Source: an uncultured Verrucomicrobiae bacterium
GTDB taxonomy: Bacteria; Verrucomicrobiota; Verrucomicrobiia; Limisphaerales; UBA11358
Reading direction: 5' to 3'
NCBI GenBank assembly: GCA_963744965.1
Contig: CAVUVT010000008.1
Location: 69,767-133,766, forward strand
Length of the DNA: 64,000 bases
The position numbers and the translations under genes are program-made. Positions 34,390 through 62,043 of the stretch are shown piece by piece. The notes beneath the pieces are model-generated. The model saw only the letters and a program-made list of their open reading frames with translations, was not told where the DNA came from and did no database searches. Position 1 is the first letter of the stretch. Each line of letters starts with the position of its first letter.

Positions 34390-36030
34390 TCAGCGCGTCG
34401 GACCGTTGCCGGGACCACTTTGATTGTTGGAATTCTGCGGCGGTGGCGCGGAGGAATGGGAGTTCGACTCATTGTGTTGCGGGCGTGGCTGGGCCGGCGC
34501 CGCGGCGGGAGCGCCGTGGCGGCTGGCTTCGGATGCGCCGGAGGGATCCTGGTTGGCAGGGAGTATGGCTACCGGCGCATCGGAATTACGCGTGCTGTTG
34601 TACGGCGTGCCCGATGGTTGTTGCTCCTGCGCTCGTGGGGAGTAAGTCCGGCTGTTATAGTACGGTGCCAGCGCAACCGGCGGCGGTGATGGATAATAAC
34701 TGGCTGATGGCGGCGGGCGTTGCGTTTGGTTTTGGTTTGGAACGGAGAGATTGTTCCGCTGCTGCGGCTGTCCAACAGGTCGTGTTTGAGGCGTCGGCCA
34801 ATTGTTGTTCGGTTGCGGGGAATGATTATGTGCCGGAGACGCGGGTTGCGGCGGGCGACCGACGATCAGCGTGTTGCCATCGCGACTGAGTTGATCGCCG
34901 CGCGGGTCATGTCCGTATGGCGCGGCGGTGTCCCGGATGGCGACCGGACGGATGGGTGTGTGGGTGACGGCGGTGATGCGTTCCGGATCAATCCCCCGGT
35001 TGGCCAGGCTGCGGCCGTGACCGTTGAAATTGTTGATGACCGTCGTCTGATTGTAAATCTGCGTGACTTGGGCCGGTGCCGCGCAAAAATGGCGTGGATG
35101 CGGATCGCAAAAATGTTGTATCGGAACAAATATGAAACAATTTGCGCTCAAACCCCAGTTGAAACCGATGCTGACTGCGCTTCCGCGATAAAAGAAACCG
35201 ATGCCGGCCTGGTAGGTTGCATAAGGCGGCAGCGGTGCCCAGCCGCAGTAACCACTCGAATACCGCCAGGTCACCCAGGACGGGGCCCAAACGGTGTCGG
35301 GCGTCCAGCACCAGCCCCAGCGCGGATGCTGAAACCAGCGCCCGTAATGGAACGGCGCCCAGCCCCACGAATAATCCGAAAACCAATACCAGCCGCAGTC
35401 GGTATAAACCCAATGTCCATGATCGCAATACGGCTGCCAGCCGGCGTTGTAAACCACCACACTGGGCCGCCAGCACCATCCATAGTCGTCCACGTCCACC
35501 CAGGTGCCATACGGCGCAAGCGTGTCATAAAAATTGTTCACCGTGACTTCCGCCGGCTGCTCCGCCGGCTGCTCCGCCGGTTGCGGCGGCGGTGCGGTTT
35601 CCGGTTGCTCGGTTGGGACGGGTGGCGGCGCGGGAGCGGGTTGAGCCGGGGGTTGATACGCCGACGCAGCCATTTGCTGCTGCAACTGCTGGTCGTGTTG
35701 CATCATGGCGGTGACGACTTCGCTCGGCAGGCCAATGTCCTTCAAATAAATGATTTTGTCCGAATCGAGATTGAACGTGCTGCCGGAGTTCGTGACGTAA
35801 GTCATGATGATGCTTTCATCCACGCCGGCCTGCGTGAGCCGGATGACCTGTGCCAGCGGGCTGGATGGATAAACGTTCGGTGGCAATGCGCTTGATGCCG
35901 TTGCATTGCCCGATGGGGGTGGAGCAGGTTGTGCTTGCGCCGAGGAATTAAACGGTGAACGGACGCCCGTTAAACATAGAACCGCAATCGCCGTCCCCCA
36001 GACACACCTTTTGAAGAATTCGATTTTCAT
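34390..36030 (-). CDS. secreted proline-rich protein with a W/Y/G/C-rich central domain
   Basis: Signal peptide, P/Q-rich linkers and the core YGWCWRPSVVVYNAGWQPYCDHGHWVYTDCGWYWFSDYSWGWAPFHYGRW. Family not assigned. Confidence 0.7.
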   Translation of the reverse strand: MKIEFFKRCVWGTAIAVLCLTGVRSPFNSSAQAQPAPPPSGNATASSALPPNVYPSSPLAQVIRLTQAGVDESIIMTYVTNSGSTFNLDSDKIIYLKDIGLPSEVVTAMMQHDQQLQQQMAASAYQPPAQPAPAPPPVPTEQPETAPPPQPAEQPAEQPAEVTVNNFYDTLAPYGTWVDVDDYGWCWRPSVVVYNAGWQPYCDHGHWVYTDCGWYWFSDYSWGWAPFHYGRWFQHPRWGWCWTPDTVWAPSWVTWRYSSGYCGWAPLPPYATYQAGIGFFYRGSAVSIGFNWGLSANCFIFVPIQHFCDPHPRHFCAAPAQVTQIYNQTTVINNFNGHGRSLANRGIDPERITAVTHTPIRPVAIRDTAAPYGHDPRGDQLSRDGNTLIVGRPPQPASPAHNHSPQPNNNWPTPQTRPVGQPQQRNNLSVPNQNQTQRPPPSASYYPSPPPVALAPYYNSRTYSPRAQEQQPSGTPYNSTRNSDAPVAILPANQDPSGASEASRHGAPAAAPAQPRPQHNESNSHSSAPPPQNSNNQSGPGNGPTR

Positions 36031-54689: not shown

Positions 54690-55511
54690 ATGCTTTTGCT
54701 TTTCGACATCGGCAACACGAACACGCACGCCGGGCTGGCGAATGGCCGGCGGGTCGTGAAGCAGACCAATCTTCCCACGGCGGGCTGGTTCGACGGCACG
54801 GCGGCGAAGCGGTTGCGACAATTCGCCGGCCGCGCCCGGCTCGACGGCGTGGCGCTTTGCAGTGTCGTGCCGCGCGCGACGCCGGAGGCGCGGGAGTTCA
54901 TTGCCCAACTCGGAGCGCCGGGCACCGGCCCGGCTCGAAAGAAAATGCGCCAACCGGCCGGGGCGGTGCCCGGCGTTCCCATGCTCGAACTCACACCAAA
55001 AACCTTGCGCGGTTTGGGGATTGATTATCCGAAGGCGGACACCATCGGTCCGGATCGCCTGGCCAATGCGGTGGCCGCGCGTCACCGATTTGGCGCGCCG
55101 GTGGTGGTGCTGGATTTCGGCACGGCGGTCACGCTGGATGTGGTCAATCGCGCCGGCAATTACGCGGGCGGCATCATCGCGCCGGGTTTGGCGGCGATGA
55201 CAGATTATTTGCACGAGAAAACCGCGTTGCTGCCGCGCATCAAAATCCGCGAAATCAAAACGAGCATCGGCAAAAGCACCGGGGAAGCGATGCTGGTGGG
55301 CGCGGTGCATGGTTATCGCGGGCTGGTCCGGGAATTGATCGCCGAATTGAAGCGCGAGTTGAAAGTAAAGCGATTGCCGGTCGTTGCCACCGGCGGTTAC
55401 GCAAAGCTGATGGCGTCCAAACTGCCGGAGATTTCAGCCGTGGAACCGAATCTGACGCTGGAAGGTTTGCGATTGACGTGGGAAGCGACCCGCACTCACG
55501 GCCATTTGTAA
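54690..55511 (+). CDS. coaX: type III pantothenate kinase
   Basis: MLLLFDIGNTNTH, GPDRLANAVAA and the ATGG motif. Confidence 0.9.
   Translation: MLLLFDIGNTNTHAGLANGRRVVKQTNLPTAGWFDGTAAKRLRQFAGRARLDGVALCSVVPRATPEAREFIAQLGAPGTGPARKKMRQPAGAVPGVPMLELTPKTLRGLGIDYPKADTIGPDRLANAVAARHRFGAPVVVLDFGTAVTLDVVNRAGNYAGGIIAPGLAAMTDYLHEKTALLPRIKIREIKTSIGKSTGEAMLVGAVHGYRGLVRELIAELKRELKVKRLPVVATGGYAKLMASKLPEISAVEPNLTLEGLRLTWEATRTHGHL
54912..54979. repeat. GGARCGCCGG-type palindromic element inside coaX
   Basis: GGAGCGCCGGGCACCGGCCCGGC...GCCGGGGCGGTGCCCGGCGTTCC. Confidence 0.75.
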
Positions 55512-57901
55512 TTGACGGAGGCGAAAATTCCCTGCGCGGTGAAATTGTTCACGTTGCCGTTGCTCGGTTGCGAGTATTGGGAAAATCCGTAGCGCAAGGC
55601 GCCGGAAAGCCGGTTGCTGAACTGGCGGGTCAGGCCGACGAGCAGGTCGTGGTGGGTGAAATTGATGCCGAGCGGCAAGCCCACGGTGTTGTTTTGTCCG
55701 TAACCGGCCTGTGAAAAGGCGTAGGTAGCGTCCAAATGGGTTTTGGCATTCAAGGCATAGCCCGCGCTGGCGCCGACGGTGTAGGTGTCTCCACGATACG
55801 GCACCACGGCGGAATTCTGGTCGGCGGCGGTGGTGGTGCGTGAATAGCCGTAAGTGAACGAGCTTGAACAGTAAAATCGTTGCCCCGGGGTGAAGTTCAG
55901 GCTCAACCCGAAATTATTGGCCAGGGTGCTGCCGTCCGAAATGGTTCCGCCGGGAGAAATCCCAAAGGGAACCGGCTCGGTGGTCGTGGAATAATCCGAT
56001 TCGACCCATTGCCAGGTCAGCCGGGCGTTCAGCCAATAGACGGGGCGCAGCACGAGCCGTCCTTCGATTTCATCCGTGGTGATGTCCCGGTGGGTGATGA
56101 AGGCGGGGTAACCAATGCCGCCGTAGGGCGAGGTATCCACGAGATTGTTGTAACTGGTGTCGCTGTCAACGTACCGGTAATGTCCGCCCCATTCAACCCA
56201 AGGCCAGGGCGATGAGGTGAAACCCACCCGGGTGTCATAGAAATAATTCATCGCGTCTGTCTCTTGCTGAAAGTCGTACGGCGACACGCCGGCGGTGTTT
56301 TGGTCGGCCGATTGCCCGACGCTTTCCTGGCGCAGGCGTCCTTCGGCAAACAGCACCGTCCGCGGCAGGCGGTTGAACCGGAGGTCGAGATTTTCCGAGC
56401 TGACGGTCCGGTCCAGGTTTGCGTTCTCGGTGCCGGGAACCGGAGTATAGCCGGGCACGGTCGCATCGTAAAAAGCCAGGTCCACATTGCCAAAACCGTT
56501 TTCATGGGTCCATTCGCCCTGGGCGGAGACGGAAACGCTCAATCCCTTTGCGGGCAAAAACAGGCTGGACCCGCTGATAATGTACGAGTTGCGTTGCAGC
56601 GTGATGTCCTGCGCCTGCCAGGCGGAACCCGAAGCCGCCGCCCCGGATCCATCTATGGTGTTTTCGTTGAAGGACGACGTGCCGTTATAGACGGAAACCA
56701 GGCTGCCGAAAGAAGCCTGCCACCAATCGCAGATTTGTTTTTGAACCCGGAAGGTATTCGCGCCTTGCGAGTATTGGACGCCTTGATTCATTTGTTGAAT
56801 AAGGTCCGGATTGGGGCTGGTGGTATAACTGATCACATCGTTCCGCTGGTCGGAGAGATGATAAAACTCGGCCCGGACCCGGTCTTCAATGCGCCAGTCG
56901 TCCCATTCGCGGGTGAGATCCACTTTGAAGATGTGAGTGTGTTCATCCACACTCTCGATATTGGGGTAGATGTTTTTGGACGCGAATTGCTGATTTACCG
57001 TCTGATTGACCGTTCCCCAGACCAGCGTGGATTTCTCCCCCTGCCGGAACTGGTATTCATAGCCGAAGACCAATTGCGGCGAGTCGGGCAGCGTCAGTCC
57101 GAAATCAATCCAGGCGCGGCCGATGTCCAGATGCGGGTTCTGGTCCAGGGAAAAGCTGGGCGGCGTGAACAGCGGGTAATATCCGCCGGTGTCATCGTAA
57201 TACCGCCGCCATTCCTCAAAGCCGGAATGCACGAAGCCGGAATCCTTTTCGTCCAGCGCCACCGTCACTTTGAAATCGTGCTCCGGCACCAAGGCATGGC
57301 CTTCAATGGTGAGTTTTTCGTCCGGGGCAATTTGTTCGCTGAATGAAAAATGGTTCGCGCCGCCGCTCCAACCCTCCTGAACTCCTTCCAATTCGCGGAA
57401 TTTTTTGTTGTCGCCCGACACACCAACCCAGCCCGAACCCGGCGCGATGGAAAAAGCAACCGCCGGCGGCGCAGAATTCGTTCCCCAATCCGCGCCCTGG
57501 TCAATCCAGGTCCGCAACGCGCCGACCTGCGCGGAGGTGAGCGGCGGCCCATGGTCGGGCGGCGGCATCCGGATGTCCTTGTCCAGCCCGGCCACGTAGG
57601 CGATCAATTTGCTCTGGTCGCCCTGGCCGGGAACGATGTCATTTTTGTTGTCGTCGCCGCCCTTGAGAGCGTCGGCGCGGGTGTCGAGGCGGAAACCGCT
57701 CTTTGGCTTTTCCGGGCCATGACAGCGAAAGCAACTTTGCTCGAAGATGGGCCGCACGTCGCGGTCGAAAAGGATTGAATTCCGGTTGGATGCGGCGCTG
57801 ACGACATTGGTTTCAACGGCGGAAGCGGCGGACGTGGCCGCCAAAGCAAATACCGCAACGAAACTTTTTCCGCAAATTCGTCTGTTGGCTCCCGGGTTCA
57901 C
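55496..57901 (-). CDS. PSCyt1-type monohaem cytochrome c domain fused to a putative outer-membrane beta-barrel
   Basis: GTG start and signal peptide (FVAVFALAATSAASA). RPIFEQSCFRCHGPEKPKSGFRLD. About 650 Cys-free aa with amphipathic strand pattern, ending GIFASVNYKWP. Confidence 0.7.
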   Translation of the reverse strand: MNPGANRRICGKSFVAVFALAATSAASAVETNVVSAASNRNSILFDRDVRPIFEQSCFRCHGPEKPKSGFRLDTRADALKGGDDNKNDIVPGQGDQSKLIAYVAGLDKDIRMPPPDHGPPLTSAQVGALRTWIDQGADWGTNSAPPAVAFSIAPGSGWVGVSGDNKKFRELEGVQEGWSGGANHFSFSEQIAPDEKLTIEGHALVPEHDFKVTVALDEKDSGFVHSGFEEWRRYYDDTGGYYPLFTPPSFSLDQNPHLDIGRAWIDFGLTLPDSPQLVFGYEYQFRQGEKSTLVWGTVNQTVNQQFASKNIYPNIESVDEHTHIFKVDLTREWDDWRIEDRVRAEFYHLSDQRNDVISYTTSPNPDLIQQMNQGVQYSQGANTFRVQKQICDWWQASFGSLVSVYNGTSSFNENTIDGSGAAASGSAWQAQDITLQRNSYIISGSSLFLPAKGLSVSVSAQGEWTHENGFGNVDLAFYDATVPGYTPVPGTENANLDRTVSSENLDLRFNRLPRTVLFAEGRLRQESVGQSADQNTAGVSPYDFQQETDAMNYFYDTRVGFTSSPWPWVEWGGHYRYVDSDTSYNNLVDTSPYGGIGYPAFITHRDITTDEIEGRLVLRPVYWLNARLTWQWVESDYSTTTEPVPFGISPGGTISDGSTLANNFGLSLNFTPGQRFYCSSSFTYGYSRTTTAADQNSAVVPYRGDTYTVGASAGYALNAKTHLDATYAFSQAGYGQNNTVGLPLGINFTHHDLLVGLTRQFSNRLSGALRYGFSQYSQPSNGNVNNFTAQGIFASVNYKWP

Positions 57902-57921: not shown

Positions 57922-58716
57922 TTAATACAGGAAGATCGGGTTGATGTCGGAGCCGTGGATGGCCGTGTGGCAGCCGGCGGACCAGCAGGTGCCCATTTGC
58001 AGGTAGGCGGAGTGCGGAGCTTTGCCGATGAAAATTTCGCCGGGCGGCACTCCGGGACCCTGCACCTGAGCGTGGCAACGAAAGCAAAGGTTGTTGTCGG
58101 CCTGGGTGAGCATCATGCGGTTGATCGAGCCGTGCGGGTTGTGACAGGTCGTGCAGCCTTCGCGCAGGGCGGGGTGCTCGAAAACAAACGGCCGCGTCTG
58201 TTCGCGGTGGCATTGGGCGCAGGCTTCGTTGAGTTGCGCCATGGCCAGCCCGCCCTCCGGTTTGAGAATGTCTTCGCCGTGCGGGTCGTGGCATTGGACA
58301 CAGTTCATGTGGCCCTCGATGACGGGATGATGCGTGGGCAATTGAAATTCCGCATGTGTCTTCAGATGACACCGGAAACAGGCTTCCGGAGTCTGGCCCG
58401 GGTTGATGATGAATCTGCCGATGCCGCCGCCAGCCTCAACGTGTTTGCTGCCCGGACCATGGCAGGATTCACAGCCGGTGCCGTCCTTCAGGCCGGAGTC
58501 TTCCAGGTACAGATGGGCGTGCGGGCTGGCTTCGAATTTGCGGACGATGTTGGTATGGCATTCGTAGCACACCGGGTTGCCCACGTAGTGCGCGCCGGGA
58601 ATTTCAAGCGGTGCGACCACCGCCATCGGCATGGTGGAGCACGAATTCAAAAAAAACACCCCACCGCTTCCCGCACTCAAAGCCATCACTGCGATCCATG
58701 TTCGTTTCCGTTTCAA
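57922..58716 (-). CDS. multihaem c-type cytochrome (possible lipoprotein)
   Basis: Seven CxxCH motifs (CYECH, CESCH, CFRCH, CVQCH, CAQCH, CTTCH, CFRCH) plus CWSAGCH. N-terminus ...FFLNSC. Confidence 0.9.
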   Translation of the reverse strand: MKRKRTWIAVMALSAGSGGVFFLNSCSTMPMAVVAPLEIPGAHYVGNPVCYECHTNIVRKFEASPHAHLYLEDSGLKDGTGCESCHGPGSKHVEAGGGIGRFIINPGQTPEACFRCHLKTHAEFQLPTHHPVIEGHMNCVQCHDPHGEDILKPEGGLAMAQLNEACAQCHREQTRPFVFEHPALREGCTTCHNPHGSINRMMLTQADNNLCFRCHAQVQGPGVPPGEIFIGKAPHSAYLQMGTCWSAGCHTAIHGSDINPIFLY

Positions 58717-59636
58717 TGATTTTGATTGCCGGCGGCGTCCGGCGCGTTGGTGGCGGCGGCGGCCTTGATGATTTCGGCAACAATCTGGTCGGAAAGGTCC
58801 CCGGTCGTTGGAAAAACCATCTGCAGATGGCCGGCGGCATCAATGATAAGAGTGCGGAAATCGTGGTTGAAGGTGCCGGCATCGTATTGATAGCTGACGC
58901 CTGATTGCCGGGCGAGTTCGCCGATCTTGTCCGCCGGGCCGGTGAGAAAGCTCCAATGCTTCGGATCGTATTGATAACTGTCGCCGTAGGCTTTCAGCAT
59001 CGGCGGCGAATCAAATTCCGTGTCGAAGGAAATGGAAAGCAAATGCCAGTTGGCGGGGGCGCCGGGCCGGGATTCGAGTTTTTGCTGCGCTGCCTGGAAA
59101 TTTTTTGACAACCGCGGGCAATAATCGGGCAGCGGGCAGCGGGTGTAAAAAAATGTGATGGCCAGCGCCTGCCCGCGGAAATCGTTCAAACTCACCGCCC
59201 GGCCCAGTTCGTTGGTGAACTTGTAATCCAGCAGCGGATGATTTGGCGGGACGGCTGGTGAGTTGGCCGGGGTTGGAGTGGGCGGCAACGAAACCGTTCC
59301 GATTTTGGCGATGTGCCCAACCCAGCTCTTCGATTCTGTGACCTGAAGCTGGAATGAAATTTCATCGCCCCGGTGCAAGCCGGCCAATTCTTTTGGGTCT
59401 TTCACCTCGAACGGCATGGTCATGGCAGCCATGTAATTGGAAATGGCTTCGTGCCGGATGACCACTGTCCGGCCGTCCGGCTTGAGTTCCATCACCGTTC
59501 CTTTGGCCAGGAACGACTGCGGGTTTGTGGCTTCCCCGCTGGATAATGGGAGCGATCCGGCGGATTTCGCACCGGACAGAATCAGCATCAACAAAGCGAA
59601 CGGCAATATGCTGATAAATAACGCCCGCAGCCTCAT
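58713..59636 (-). CDS. CusF-like copper-binding domain fused to an SCO1/SenC family protein
   Basis: GTVMELKPDGRTVVIRHEAISNYMAAMTMPFEV, then the thioredoxin fold FFYTRCPLPDYCP...H. Confidence 0.8.
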   Translation of the reverse strand: MRLRALFISILPFALLMLILSGAKSAGSLPLSSGEATNPQSFLAKGTVMELKPDGRTVVIRHEAISNYMAAMTMPFEVKDPKELAGLHRGDEISFQLQVTESKSWVGHIAKIGTVSLPPTPTPANSPAVPPNHPLLDYKFTNELGRAVSLNDFRGQALAITFFYTRCPLPDYCPRLSKNFQAAQQKLESRPGAPANWHLLSISFDTEFDSPPMLKAYGDSYQYDPKHWSFLTGPADKIGELARQSGVSYQYDAGTFNHDFRTLIIDAAGHLQMVFPTTGDLSDQIVAEIIKAAAATNAPDAAGNQNH

Positions 59637-59696: not shown

Positions 59697-60566
59697 TCAT
59701 GGATTTGGCAGACGTCCGACCCGGTAAAATCCCGGGTTGAATGTCGCGTTGAGATCCGTGAAATTGATCGAGCCACTTCCCGCCGTATTGGTGACGAGGA
59801 TGGTCCAATTGGGCGAAAGCAGATTGGTGGAACGTTGGACGATGTAATCCAGCCCGGCATTCGCCGTGTAACTGAACCTGAATTTCCCGGGTGGCACCGG
59901 CTGCGGCGCACTAAGCAGCACCGACACCGGCGTGACGACGCTGATGGCAACCTGGTTGGTGCCGGTGGCGCCACTGTTATCCGAGGCGATGGCGAAAAGA
60001 GTATAGCTGCCCGCGGCCAGGTTGTTGGTGACGCCGAAGAAGGGGGCAGTAGCCGTGTTGGTCACCACGTTGGCGCCGACCAGGAATTGCACGTTGGTGA
60101 CCGTGCCGTCGCTGTCCGAGGTGGAGGCCTGGATGGTGACGTTGGCCGGCGAGGCGAAGACCGTGCCGGACACCGGATTGGTGATGGAAACGGCCGGCGG
60201 CAAATGGGCGGCGGCGACAATCACTGCGCCGGTCATGCCGAGGGTATAATGCACCGAGCAATAATAACTGTAAATACCCGCGGCAGAGAATGTGTTGGTA
60301 TATTTGGAGTTCACAGCGAGCACGGTCGAATTCCACAATCCGCTCGCCGTCCCATTCGTGCCGCTGGTGGAAGAGTGATCACTGCCAGCCCAATTCCATA
60401 TCACCTGGTCGTTGACATTGATGTTGGTTACGACGGGGGCGAAGTGATCTCCACCACTTCCAACGGTCACATTGGCAACCGCGGCGAATCCGGTCGTTGA
60501 GGAGCCGAACACTGCCAGACTTGCGCTCAAGAGCGCCATTTTAAATAAATAACGAATCGCCTTCAT
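59697..60566 (-). CDS. secreted cupredoxin (type 1 copper) protein with Ig-like domain and FYR-type tail
   Basis: GSDHSS ... YYCSVHYTLGM (C-x2-H-x4-M), Big-like middle region and tail STNLLSPNW...GFYRVG. Start at MKAIRYLF. Confidence 0.8.
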   Translation of the reverse strand: MKAIRYLFKMALLSASLAVFGSSTTGFAAVANVTVGSGGDHFAPVVTNINVNDQVIWNWAGSDHSSTSGTNGTASGLWNSTVLAVNSKYTNTFSAAGIYSYYCSVHYTLGMTGAVIVAAAHLPPAVSITNPVSGTVFASPANVTIQASTSDSDGTVTNVQFLVGANVVTNTATAPFFGVTNNLAAGSYTLFAIASDNSGATGTNQVAISVVTPVSVLLSAPQPVPPGKFRFSYTANAGLDYIVQRSTNLLSPNWTILVTNTAGSGSINFTDLNATFNPGFYRVGRLPNP

Positions 60567-60685
60567 AATATCTGTTCCATCGAATTGGTTCATTGATGAC
60601 CGGTCAAACAGCCGCCGCACGTGAGATCACGCCGGCATTGACCGTCGGAATCGTTTTGAGTGAAAATTACACTCCCATTTGCAAG

Positions 60686-60714
60686 TGAGATGGATAACGA
60701 TGGCATTTGTTCCC
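60686..60714 (-). promoter_or_regulatory. candidate ECF-type promoter for the cupredoxin operon
   Basis: Minus strand reads GGGAAC-N18-TCTCA. The -35 lies in one arm of a 12-bp perfect palindrome. Confidence 0.5.
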
Positions 60715-60724
60715 GCAAATTTTC

Positions 60725-60753
60725 GGGAACAAATGACGGGGTAAGGGCTCTTA
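60725..60753 (+). promoter_or_regulatory. candidate autoregulated ECF-type promoter for the sigma/anti-sigma genes
   Basis: GGGAAC-N18-TCTTA, 17 nt upstream of the sigma ATG. The -35 lies in the other palindrome arm. Confidence 0.5.
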
Positions 60754-60769
60754 ACTTCGATGTAGCGAT

Positions 60770-61291
60770 ATGGCTGAAGGCCTGGACTTTGAGCGGTTGG
60801 TGGCTTGTTATTACGAGCCGCTGTACCAATTTGCCTTCAGCCTCGCGCGAGACGAAGCCGACGCCTGTGATCTCACACAACAAACTTTTTGCATTTGGGC
60901 GGCCAAGGGTCATCAGTTGCGCGACGCATCCAAAGTGAAAACCTGGCTGTTCACCACCCTGCACCGCGAGTTTCTCGGCGCGCGGCGAAAGCAAACGCGC
61001 TTTCCGCACGTCGAATTGGAGCAGGCGGCGGCGGAACTCCCCGTCGTGTCGCCGCCCACCATCAACCGCCTCGACGCCGGACGGGCGCTCGACGCCCTGG
61101 CGTGTCTGGATGAAATTTACCAGGCGCCCGTCGCGTTGTTTTACCTGCAGGATTGTTCCTACAACGAGATTGCCGAAATTCTCGACGTGCCGCTCGGCAC
61201 CGTCAAATCACGCCTCACCCGCGGCCTTGACCGGCTGCACCAACTGCTGACCGGCGCCACCAACGCGCAACCCCAGCCACCAAATTTGTGA
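60770..61291 (+). CDS. ECF (sigma-70 family group 4) RNA polymerase sigma factor
   Basis: Region 2 (YEPLYQFAFSLARDEADACDLTQQTF) and region 4 HTH (SYNEIAEILDVPLGTVKSRLTRG). Confidence 0.9.
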   Translation: MAEGLDFERLVACYYEPLYQFAFSLARDEADACDLTQQTFCIWAAKGHQLRDASKVKTWLFTTLHREFLGARRKQTRFPHVELEQAAAELPVVSPPTINRLDAGRALDALACLDEIYQAPVALFYLQDCSYNEIAEILDVPLGTVKSRLTRGLDRLHQLLTGATNAQPQPPNL

Positions 61292-62043
61292 ATCGCGACG
61301 AAGCCAGAACCATTTTGCTGCTCTACCGGCCCGGCACGGCGGATGCGGGAGACCCGGAAATTGCCGCGGCGCTTGGGCTGGCCAAGCAGAATCCGGAATT
61401 GACGTGCTGGCTGGTGGAACATTGCGCGCGGCAGGAGGCGTTGCGCGCCGTGTTCCGGCAAATCACCGCGCCCGCCGGATTGAAGGAACAAATCATTTCC
61501 GAACAGGCAGCCAAGGAGAAAATCAGCTTCCGGCGGCAGCGGGCGTTCCTTGCGGCAATGGCCGCTGTTGCGGTGCTGGTGGTCCTGACCCCGCTCTGGT
61601 TCCAGCACCGCCGGAGCAATGATACCTATGACCTTTACCGGAACCAGATGGCGAGTGTTGCTTTGCGCGGTTACGGCATGGATTTGTTTACAAATAATCC
61701 CGCATCCGTCCGCGCCTTCCTGGCGCAAAACCACGCGCCGGCGGATTACGTTCTGCCGGCGCCGTTGGAAAAAACGGCGGTGTCCGGCTGCGCAATTGAA
61801 AACTGGCAGGGAGCGAAGGTTTCGATGATTTGTTTCCGCACCGGCAAGCCGCTGCCGCCGGGACAACAGAGCGATCTTTGGCTGTTTGTTGTTGATCGAG
61901 CAGCCGTCAAAAACGCGCCTCCGGCCGGGGCACGCCAGTTCGTTCAAATCAGCCGGCTCGGAATGATGGCGTGGACCGAAGGGGACAAATTGTATGTGCT
62001 GGGAATGAAAGGGGACGAGCAGGCGTTGCAGCCGTATTTGTGA
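61288..62043 (+). CDS. putative anti-sigma factor (single-pass membrane)
   Basis: 4-nt overlap with the sigma gene, cytoplasmic N-terminal domain, one TM (AFLAAMAAVAVLVVL) and a periplasmic domain. Confidence 0.65.
   Translation: MNRDEARTILLLYRPGTADAGDPEIAAALGLAKQNPELTCWLVEHCARQEALRAVFRQITAPAGLKEQIISEQAAKEKISFRRQRAFLAAMAAVAVLVVLTPLWFQHRRSNDTYDLYRNQMASVALRGYGMDLFTNNPASVRAFLAQNHAPADYVLPAPLEKTAVSGCAIENWQGAKVSMICFRTGKPLPPGQQSDLWLFVVDRAAVKNAPPAGARQFVQISRLGMMAWTEGDKLYVLGMKGDEQALQPYL

Follow-up and report, generated by a model that had tools for sequence, protein, structure and literature searches.

What does a perfect inverted repeat between two divergent sets of genes do in the genome of an uncultured Verrucomicrobiae bacterium? 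The repeat lies in a 64-kb stretch of contig CAVUVT010000008.1 (hereafter the window, meaning the whole of the DNA analysed), in the 203-bp gap between the start codon of a cupredoxin gene on the minus strand (ATG 60566) and that of an extracytoplasmic function (ECF) sigma factor gene on the plus strand (ATG 60770). A preliminary description had proposed that this palindrome creates two divergent ECF-type promoters, linking the sigma/anti-sigma pair to a copper/cytochrome operon. Comparison of 41 loci supports a bidirectional, ECF-dependent control region, in which two independent promoters of one ECF type very probably stand back to back within the gap, one serving the sigma gene and the other the divergent operon. 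The elements of the gap are as follows.

60704..60735, no strand: 32-bp near-perfect palindrome, two extended -35 boxes (CGGGAACAAATG) face to face with an A/T-rich centre (CAAATTTT)
60724..60735, plus strand: -35 box of the predicted sigma (autoregulatory) promoter, CGGGAACAAATG, its GGAAC invariant in 41/41 loci
60748..60753, plus strand: -10 box of the predicted sigma promoter, CTCTTA, 18 nt after GGAAC, the whole site scoring 33.5 bits
60759..60760, plus strand: predicted transcription start of the sigma/anti-sigma operon, placed by the 5-6-nt discriminator of E. coli sigmaE promoters (PMC1312014), with a leader of ~10 nt
60704..60715, minus strand: -35 box of the predicted operon promoter, CGGGAACAAATG on this strand, the site scoring 20.5 bits by the sigma-side matrix
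60686..60691, minus strand: -10 box of the predicted operon promoter, ATCTCA, 18 nt after GGAAC

Read directly, the 12 nt at 60704-60715 (CATTTGTTCCCG) and at 60724-60735 (CGGGAACAAATG) are exact reverse complements, and a repeat search showed that the symmetry continues through the centre with no loop (60704-60719 against 60720-60735, 16+16 nt, 94% complementary), C60716/T60723 being the sole mismatched pair. The geometry given in the preliminary description was also recovered in full, with GGGAAC at 60725-60730 on the plus strand followed after 18 nt by TCTTA (60749-60753), and GGGAAC at 60714-60709 on the minus strand followed after 18 nt by TCTCA (60690-60686). The pattern GGAAC-N18-TCTNA matches twice in the window, both times in this gap, where 0.26 matches are expected and 1 of 100 shuffles reaches two. 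Among perfect inverted repeats whose arms measure 12 nt or more and whose loop does not exceed 20 nt, it is the only one in the window, shuffles yielding a mean of 0.4 such repeats per 64 kb or ~1e-3 for a given 203-bp gap. The improbability of the palindrome alone is just moderate, and it is conservation in relatives that makes the case.

Relatives were obtained from a scan of one genome per species, which gave 48 loci (numbered L below), each taken as a 10-kb stretch. The comparison set of 41 consists of the window and 40 orthologous Verrucomicrobiota loci (sigma identity 60-95%), chiefly from Limisphaerales metagenome-assembled genomes (MAGs) with peat, bog and soil as sources, whilst homologous sigma/anti-sigma pairs beyond the phylum, at 50-55% sigma identity, came from Photobacterium rosenbergii (L043) and from MAGs labelled Deltaproteobacteria (L041) and Myxococcales (L042). 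GGAAC-N17-19-TCNNA stands directly upstream of the sigma gene in 41/41 orthologous loci, with a spacing after GGAAC of 18 nt in 36 loci, 17 nt in one and 19 nt in four, and with variable spacer sequence. GGAAC is invariant, as are C-T-C and the last A of the -10 block, the TTA of the -10 is kept in 35-41 of the 41 loci, and in 31 of the 41 the site stops 16 nt short of the sigma ATG, the family consensus being CGGGAACAATTG ... ACTCTTAA with the bases between free to vary. The motif recurs upstream of two of the three out-of-phylum homologues, namely those of Photobacterium (50% identity; GGAACAAAA...CTCTTA) and of the MAG labelled Deltaproteobacteria (52%; GGAACAAAC...CTCGTA); a search for the pattern upstream of the homologue in the MAG labelled Myxococcales returned no match. 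Because the blocks are conserved in all 41 loci, and the same site is present in Photobacterium and L041, we read the sigma-side site as the signature of an autoregulatory ECF promoter, as had been suggested earlier for one side of the palindrome. In an alignment of ten close relatives, conservation forms islands that coincide exactly with both -35 boxes, both -10 boxes and both start codons.

In order to look at the operon side, a position weight matrix was trained on the sigma-side sites alone and all loci were scanned with it on both strands. A 14-bit threshold and a search distance of 260 nt yielded a second site on the opposite strand in 27/41 loci, an 8-bit threshold and ~330 nt yielded one in 29/41, and dinucleotide-shuffled loci gave 4 hits in 2.0 Mb, a chance of ~2e-4 per locus. 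No two of these 29 operon-side sites have the same sequence; their spacers vary and their GGAACAA and TCTYA are kept, the -10 T-C-T-Y-A having its first T, its C and its A in 29/29 sites and its second T in 25/29. In most loci synteny is kept between the sigma/anti-sigma pair and the cupredoxin-SCO1-cytochrome-PSCyt1 genes, but the arrangement varies (operon divergent and next to the pair; divergent with a gene inserted; on the same strand and upstream; absent), and this variety is a natural experiment. The opposite-strand site was distributed over the arrangements as follows.

Divergent cupredoxin gene, 27 loci: opposite-strand site in all
Other divergent secreted-protein gene (L008, CusF-like; L036, unknown 200-amino-acid protein), 2 loci: site in both
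Operon co-directional only, 6 loci: opposite-strand site absent in all
No cupredoxin match, L036 excluded, 5 loci: opposite-strand site absent in all

Five of the six loci that have no cupredoxin match are without the site, L036 being the exception. At the co-directional loci GGAAC-N18-CTCACA, with an A-tract in front, ends 6 nt before the first operon ATG in all five that cover that region, and the promoter therefore follows the operon and not the sigma gene. A second site of the same type tracks the operon in divergent and co-directional loci alike, in agreement with the operon side of the bidirectional control that had been proposed. Direct observation covers the sequence elements themselves, how far they are conserved, the fixed geometry within each, and the way in which they go together with gene arrangement.

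The palindrome itself fares differently. Across the 29 loci with both sites the distance from GGAAC to GGAAC varies from 12 to 106 nt overall.

12-15 nt: 13 loci, the window among them
20-42 nt: 7 loci
89-106 nt: 9 loci

Because of this range we regard the palindrome as incidental and not as an operator. The view that the palindrome creates the two promoters had to be given up, the conserved units being two independent promoters at variable distance. The perfect repeat would arise because the recognised -35 box is ~12 nt long and two such boxes lie just 8 nt apart in this lineage, boxes that close (8 nt between the 12-mers) being confined to one sub-lineage (13/29 loci). The bases of the palindrome centre are A/T-rich, but not kept among relatives, and the A/T fraction upstream of the -35 boxes is 0.59-0.66 against a background of 0.44, reaching 0.9 in the few co-directional sites, a modest enrichment that does no more than hint at a common A/T-rich UP element in the palindrome centre.

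The products of the two divergent units, with the predicted leader of the operon, are listed here.

60770..61291, plus strand: ECF (group 4) sigma factor, 173 amino acids, Pfam Sigma70_r2 (residues 10-77) and Sigma70_r4_2 (106-156)
61288..62043, plus strand: predicted single-pass anti-sigma factor, 251 amino acids, its start overlapping the sigma stop by 4 nt
60567..60680, minus strand: predicted 5' leader of the operon mRNA, ~113 nt, its start extrapolated
59697..60566, minus strand: secreted cupredoxin (plastocyanin/halocyanin-like) with a Big_7 Ig-like domain, the operon's first gene, its ATG at 60566 conserved in the alignment
58713..59636, minus strand: CusF-SCO1/SenC fusion (periplasmic copper chaperone type)
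57922..58716, minus strand: periplasmic multihaem cytochrome c, DmsE/MtrA-like, with 8 haem sites (7 CXXCH and 1 CX4CH)
55496..57901, minus strand: 801-amino-acid protein with one PSCyt1 haem domain and ~700 further residues, probable GTG start at 57901

In each promoter the -35 would be GGGAACAAWT and the -10 CTCTYA, the gap that follows GGAAC being 18 nt long. The plus-strand promoter would drive the sigma/anti-sigma operon, giving positive autoregulation, and the minus-strand promoter the operon for the cupredoxin, the CusF-SCO1 fusion, the eight-haem cytochrome and the large PSCyt1 protein, which is possibly an outer-membrane barrel. A membrane anti-sigma factor would hold the sigma factor until a periplasmic signal, for which gene context makes a copper or redox link plausible, sets it free; the freed sigma factor would then bind core RNA polymerase and fire both promoters, so that positive feedback and operon induction go together. 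From the conserved sites we infer that the adjacent sigma factor recognises both of them, and the translational coupling of an ECF sigma factor to a single-pass membrane partner counts in favour of this scheme.

Several points weigh against it. The genomes are related and locus counts therefore exceed the number of independent events, the transcription starts are extrapolated from E. coli sigmaE, and all of the evidence is comparative. The ~10-nt leader predicted for the sigma mRNA is without a Shine-Dalgarno sequence. On the operon side of the window the site is the weaker of the two (20.5 vs 33.5 bits), its -10 is preceded by A where the usual base is C, and because it lies ~113 nt from the cupredoxin ATG a second promoter within the operon leader is possible. 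Two rival explanations build on such points. One is that only the sigma-side promoter works, the minus-strand copy being a dead mirror and the operon being driven from within its 113-nt leader, for which the low score and the distance from the ATG would speak. We think this unlikely, since the operon-side site is kept in 29 loci as 29 sequences and moves with the operon when gene order changes, since in L012, L026, L031 and the co-directional loci it abuts the operon ATG and leaves no room for another promoter, and since a simple sigma70 scan found no minus-strand promoter in the window's leader. The other accepts both motifs as real ECF promoters and has them read by a different, paralogous ECF sigma factor of similar specificity. 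GGAAC -35 boxes are common to many ECF groups, and the window holds a second GGAAC-type candidate, with a -10 of TCGTA, at 36104-36076; against this, the motif accompanies this particular sigma gene across Verrucomicrobiota, Photobacterium and the MAG labelled Deltaproteobacteria, and about half of ECF sigma factors reportedly autoregulate (PMC7776599), so that this explanation too appears improbable.

Two further alternatives start from the palindrome. That a dimeric transcription factor, as repressor or as activator, uses it as an operator to control both units, with the GGAAC/TCTNA matches secondary, is suggested by a 32-bp palindrome symmetric at 30/32 positions in the middle of the gap and the sole one of its kind in 64 kb. 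The half-site spacing of such an operator must be fixed and here it varies among orthologous loci, as do the central bases, and we reject this explanation as largely refuted and very unlikely; moreover, each arm keeps its exact 18-nt distance to its own TCTYA, the co-directional loci carry single unpaired copies before the sigma gene and before the operon, and, sigma aside, no DNA-binding regulator gene is conserved at the locus. A role for the palindrome as structure, whether as a DNA cruciform or as an RNA hairpin (attenuator or terminator), could draw on the stable hairpin that it forms as single-stranded DNA (-13.7 kcal/mol, z = -4.8). This seems extremely unlikely given that the hairpin is followed by ACGGGGTAAGGG with no T-run and is absent from the terminator scan list, that neither predicted mRNA would contain the palindrome, both -10 elements being downstream of it, that the hairpin does not exist in the 9 loci with arms ~95 nt apart, and that no Rfam family matches. 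Two independent ECF promoters, one for each unit, are what we retain.

The sigma factor is a small protein with regions sigma2 and sigma4 only, as expected of ECF (group 4) factors. TIGR02937 (63.6 bits, cut-off 42.9) is the sole NCBIfam model passed, and none of the specific NCBIfam families reached its cut-off, the best being a SigM subfamily at 79 bits against a cut-off of 148. The anti-sigma candidate adjoins the sigma gene in 40 of the 42 loci with a sigma identity of at least 50% and has one transmembrane segment (residues 87-105). AlphaFold2 modelled its N-terminal helical domain at a predicted local distance difference test score (pLDDT) of 80-94, whilst the model is poor past residue 60 (mean pLDDT 54.5, from 29 input sequences all at least 71% identical). 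Sequence profiles returned no anti-sigma-domain match in Pfam or the PDB, only DUF3379 below its cut-off; the main text of the paper on the ECF classification (Staron 2009 / Casas-Pastor 2021) makes no mention of DUF3379 or Verrucomicrobia, and no paper in the collection searched names both DUF3379 and ECF. For the periplasmic domain (residues ~106-251), Pfam and PDB profile searches detected no relative whose structure or function is known; its conserved motifs are GC...W.G.KVSMICF, DLWLFV and W..G.KLY.LG. The Joint Genome Institute (JGI) label given to relatives, 'YbaN (DUF454 family)', looks like a mislabel. The sigma factor is the only conserved DNA-binding regulator gene at the locus.

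At the predicted 5' end of the sigma transcript, exactly 6 nt past the -10, lies an ATG-TAG start-stop (60760-60765, plus strand). An ATG at the same position in about 30/41 loci opens a 5-codon mini-open reading frame (mini-ORF, M-x-R-Y-G), whose stop codon in relatives shares nucleotides with codons 2-3 of the sigma gene. L037 and L038 have their equivalent start codon, a GTG in L037, in the sigma gene's own reading frame. By analogy with E. coli rpoE, which has the RseD leader peptide, the mini-ORF start could be a leaderless coupling device.

On the operon side, transcription is predicted, again by analogy with E. coli sigmaE, to start near 60679/60680 (minus strand). The leader fold is not significant (z = -1.1) and the consensus fold finds just one 6-bp hairpin; Rfam gave no hit at E <= 1 on the intergenic region and a chance-level hit only on the longer leader of relatives. 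A small hairpin near the predicted mRNA 5' end (60658-60674, minus strand, GAGUG-loop-CACUC) is partly supported; L001-L006 and L009 share its sequence, and other loci show a few compensatory changes. Leader lengths differ among relatives. The operon-side promoter ends 6-16 nt before the first operon ATG in L017 (534-570), L021 (321-357), L027 (320-356), L032 (368-404) and L034 (9-45), and likewise in L012 (4834-4821) and L031 (2241-2198), and the mRNAs of those relatives would therefore be leaderless or near-leaderless, instead of the ~113 nt predicted in the window's lineage. The promoter-to-ATG distance is ~265 nt in L013, L014, L016, L020, L022, L023, L025 and L029 (e.g. L016 4825-4580, minus strand), and that stretch holds an open reading frame of 72-81 codons which starts ~9 nt after the -10, begins MVSLGAKANLK in most of these eight loci, ends KKRxPVxQWVARYWIQPIGKP and occupies an insert missing from the close relative L012. 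Third-position changes in its conserved C-terminal part suggest that it is coding; the region has no Rfam match and the frame no family assignment.

The matrix scan revealed no further regulon member above 15 bits in the window. The candidate at 36104-36076 (minus strand; GGAACATTTT...CATCGTA, 14.7 bits, with a spacing of 19) precedes by ~45 nt a gene for a secreted protein that starts at 36030 on the same strand, and another ECF sigma factor may use it as a promoter. A sigma70-type scan of the gap gave one hit, on the plus strand (TTGACC-18-GAAAAT, 60638-60667), the other two hits lying in or at the start of the cupredoxin gene; the plus-strand hit was discarded as a relevant promoter, its TTGACC box not being conserved in the alignment of relatives. 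Sites of the same promoter type as those in the gap occur elsewhere in the relatives, at L002 2774-2747, L003 2748-2721 and L006 2890-2863; at L004 4930-4903 and L038 3779-3752; at L030 7677-7650; and at L034 1170-1197. Behind these extra sites are genes for an arylsulfotransferase-like beta-propeller protein, for 865-877-amino-acid proteins with Big_7 and glucose/sorbosone-dehydrogenase domains and for an unknown 214-amino-acid secreted protein, and a multihaem cytochrome gene with the site directly before it. The regulon, as predicted from such sites, varies from lineage to lineage.

What the locus offers in practice is a precise and conserved motif, CGGGAACAAWTG-N11-CTCTYA, in which CGGGAACAAWTG is the extended -35 box, and a predicted local regulon for an uncultured Verrucomicrobial lineage of peat and bog. 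The genes concerned resemble a porin-cytochrome cluster for which a role in extracellular electron transfer has been proposed, with copper chaperones in addition. With the motif, metatranscriptomes can be searched for the conditions under which that cluster is induced. We put forward tentatively, and with more doubt than conviction, that the sigma/anti-sigma pair may be the switch dedicated to the porin-multihaem-cytochrome (extracellular electron transfer) cluster of Limisphaerales and to its copper accessories, and may also represent an undescribed ECF group with a new type of periplasmic copper or redox sensor domain. A sensor reporting on copper or redox state would fit with homologues standing beside a PCuAC copper chaperone in Vibrionaceae; in Photobacterium (L043, 4900-7415) the PCuAC gene lies two genes downstream of the anti-sigma gene. 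If there is such a dedicated switch, the promoters would provide the first regulatory handle on when uncultured peat Verrucomicrobia turn on this machinery.

The closest of the well-studied counterparts in promoter geometry is E. coli sigmaE. With an RpoE-type promoter taken as a -35 of GGAAC(TT), a 16-nt spacer (18 nt counted from GGAAC) and a -10 of TCNNA, the RpoE-like pattern claimed in the preliminary description is what both sites display, in agreement with rpoE P2 and with the published sigmaE consensus GGAACTT-16-TCAAA (Rhodius et al.), which is accompanied by a discriminator of 5-6 nt and by upstream DNA rich in A/T (PMC1312014). Of 5426 E. coli genomes, 5423 carry GGAAC-N18-TCTAA upstream of rpoE, and rpoE P2 itself (GGAACTTTACAAAAACGAGACACTCTAA) has the same geometry as here, with GGAAC, 18 nt and TCTNA. 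The logic is similar too, with A/T-rich DNA upstream of the -35, autoregulation and release from a membrane anti-sigma factor (PMC1312014). The parts are different: the sigma factor here is no orthologue of RpoE, all NCBIfam RpoE and specific models being below cut-off; the anti-sigma candidate has no RseA match and is unrelated, and an RseB gene is missing; in its extended form the -35 reads GGAACAAWTG, as against GGAACTT for sigmaE; and the predicted regulon comprises copper and cytochrome proteins in place of outer-membrane-protein folding factors.

Copper-linked ECF factors are known in CorE/CorE2 (ECF44), CarQ and M. tuberculosis SigC, and the copper context here consists of the cupredoxin and the CusF-SCO1 fusion, with PCuAC near the Photobacterium homologue. 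In CorE-type factors a C-terminal extension rich in Cys exerts the control, and there is no anti-sigma factor (PMC10141476). A CorE-like copper-sensing factor was considered for this locus and rejected, the sigma factor, at 173 amino acids, lacking an extension and ending ...TGATNAQPQPPNL with no Cys after region 4, and a membrane partner being present.

For the regulated genes, the nearest likeness is the putative porin-multihaem cytochrome cluster of bog Verrucomicrobia, in which an eight-haem periplasmic cytochrome stands beside a large porin (He et al. 2017, PMC5615132), and a similar 'EET4' cluster has been reported for Limisphaerales in peat (bioRxiv 10.64898/2026.05.27.727921); such a cluster is taken here to have an eight-haem periplasmic cytochrome adjoining a porin of at least 20 strands. 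The window operon shares with that of the humic and peat Verrucomicrobia an eight-haem cytochrome beside a very large secreted or outer-membrane protein and, going by the published description, looks like the putative Verrucomicrobial porin-cytochrome electron conduit with copper proteins added. Neither PMC5615132 nor the bioRxiv preprint uses 'sigma', 'copper' or 'cupredoxin' in its main text, and 'SCO1', searched in the preprint alone, is missing there too; the absence of such words indicates that the regulatory link is not described in those two texts.

As a regulatory device, finally, the locus as read here is unexceptional, pairing an autoregulated ECF sigma factor with a target operon that diverges from it. 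Control regions of this kind are well known in bacteria, and searches for ECF motifs routinely take in the region upstream of the divergent neighbour (PMC7776599). It shares with the generic autoregulated ECF pair the whole layout, an identical two-block motif before the sigma gene and before the divergent gene, and differs from it in that the -35 boxes here are close enough to form a perfect palindrome.

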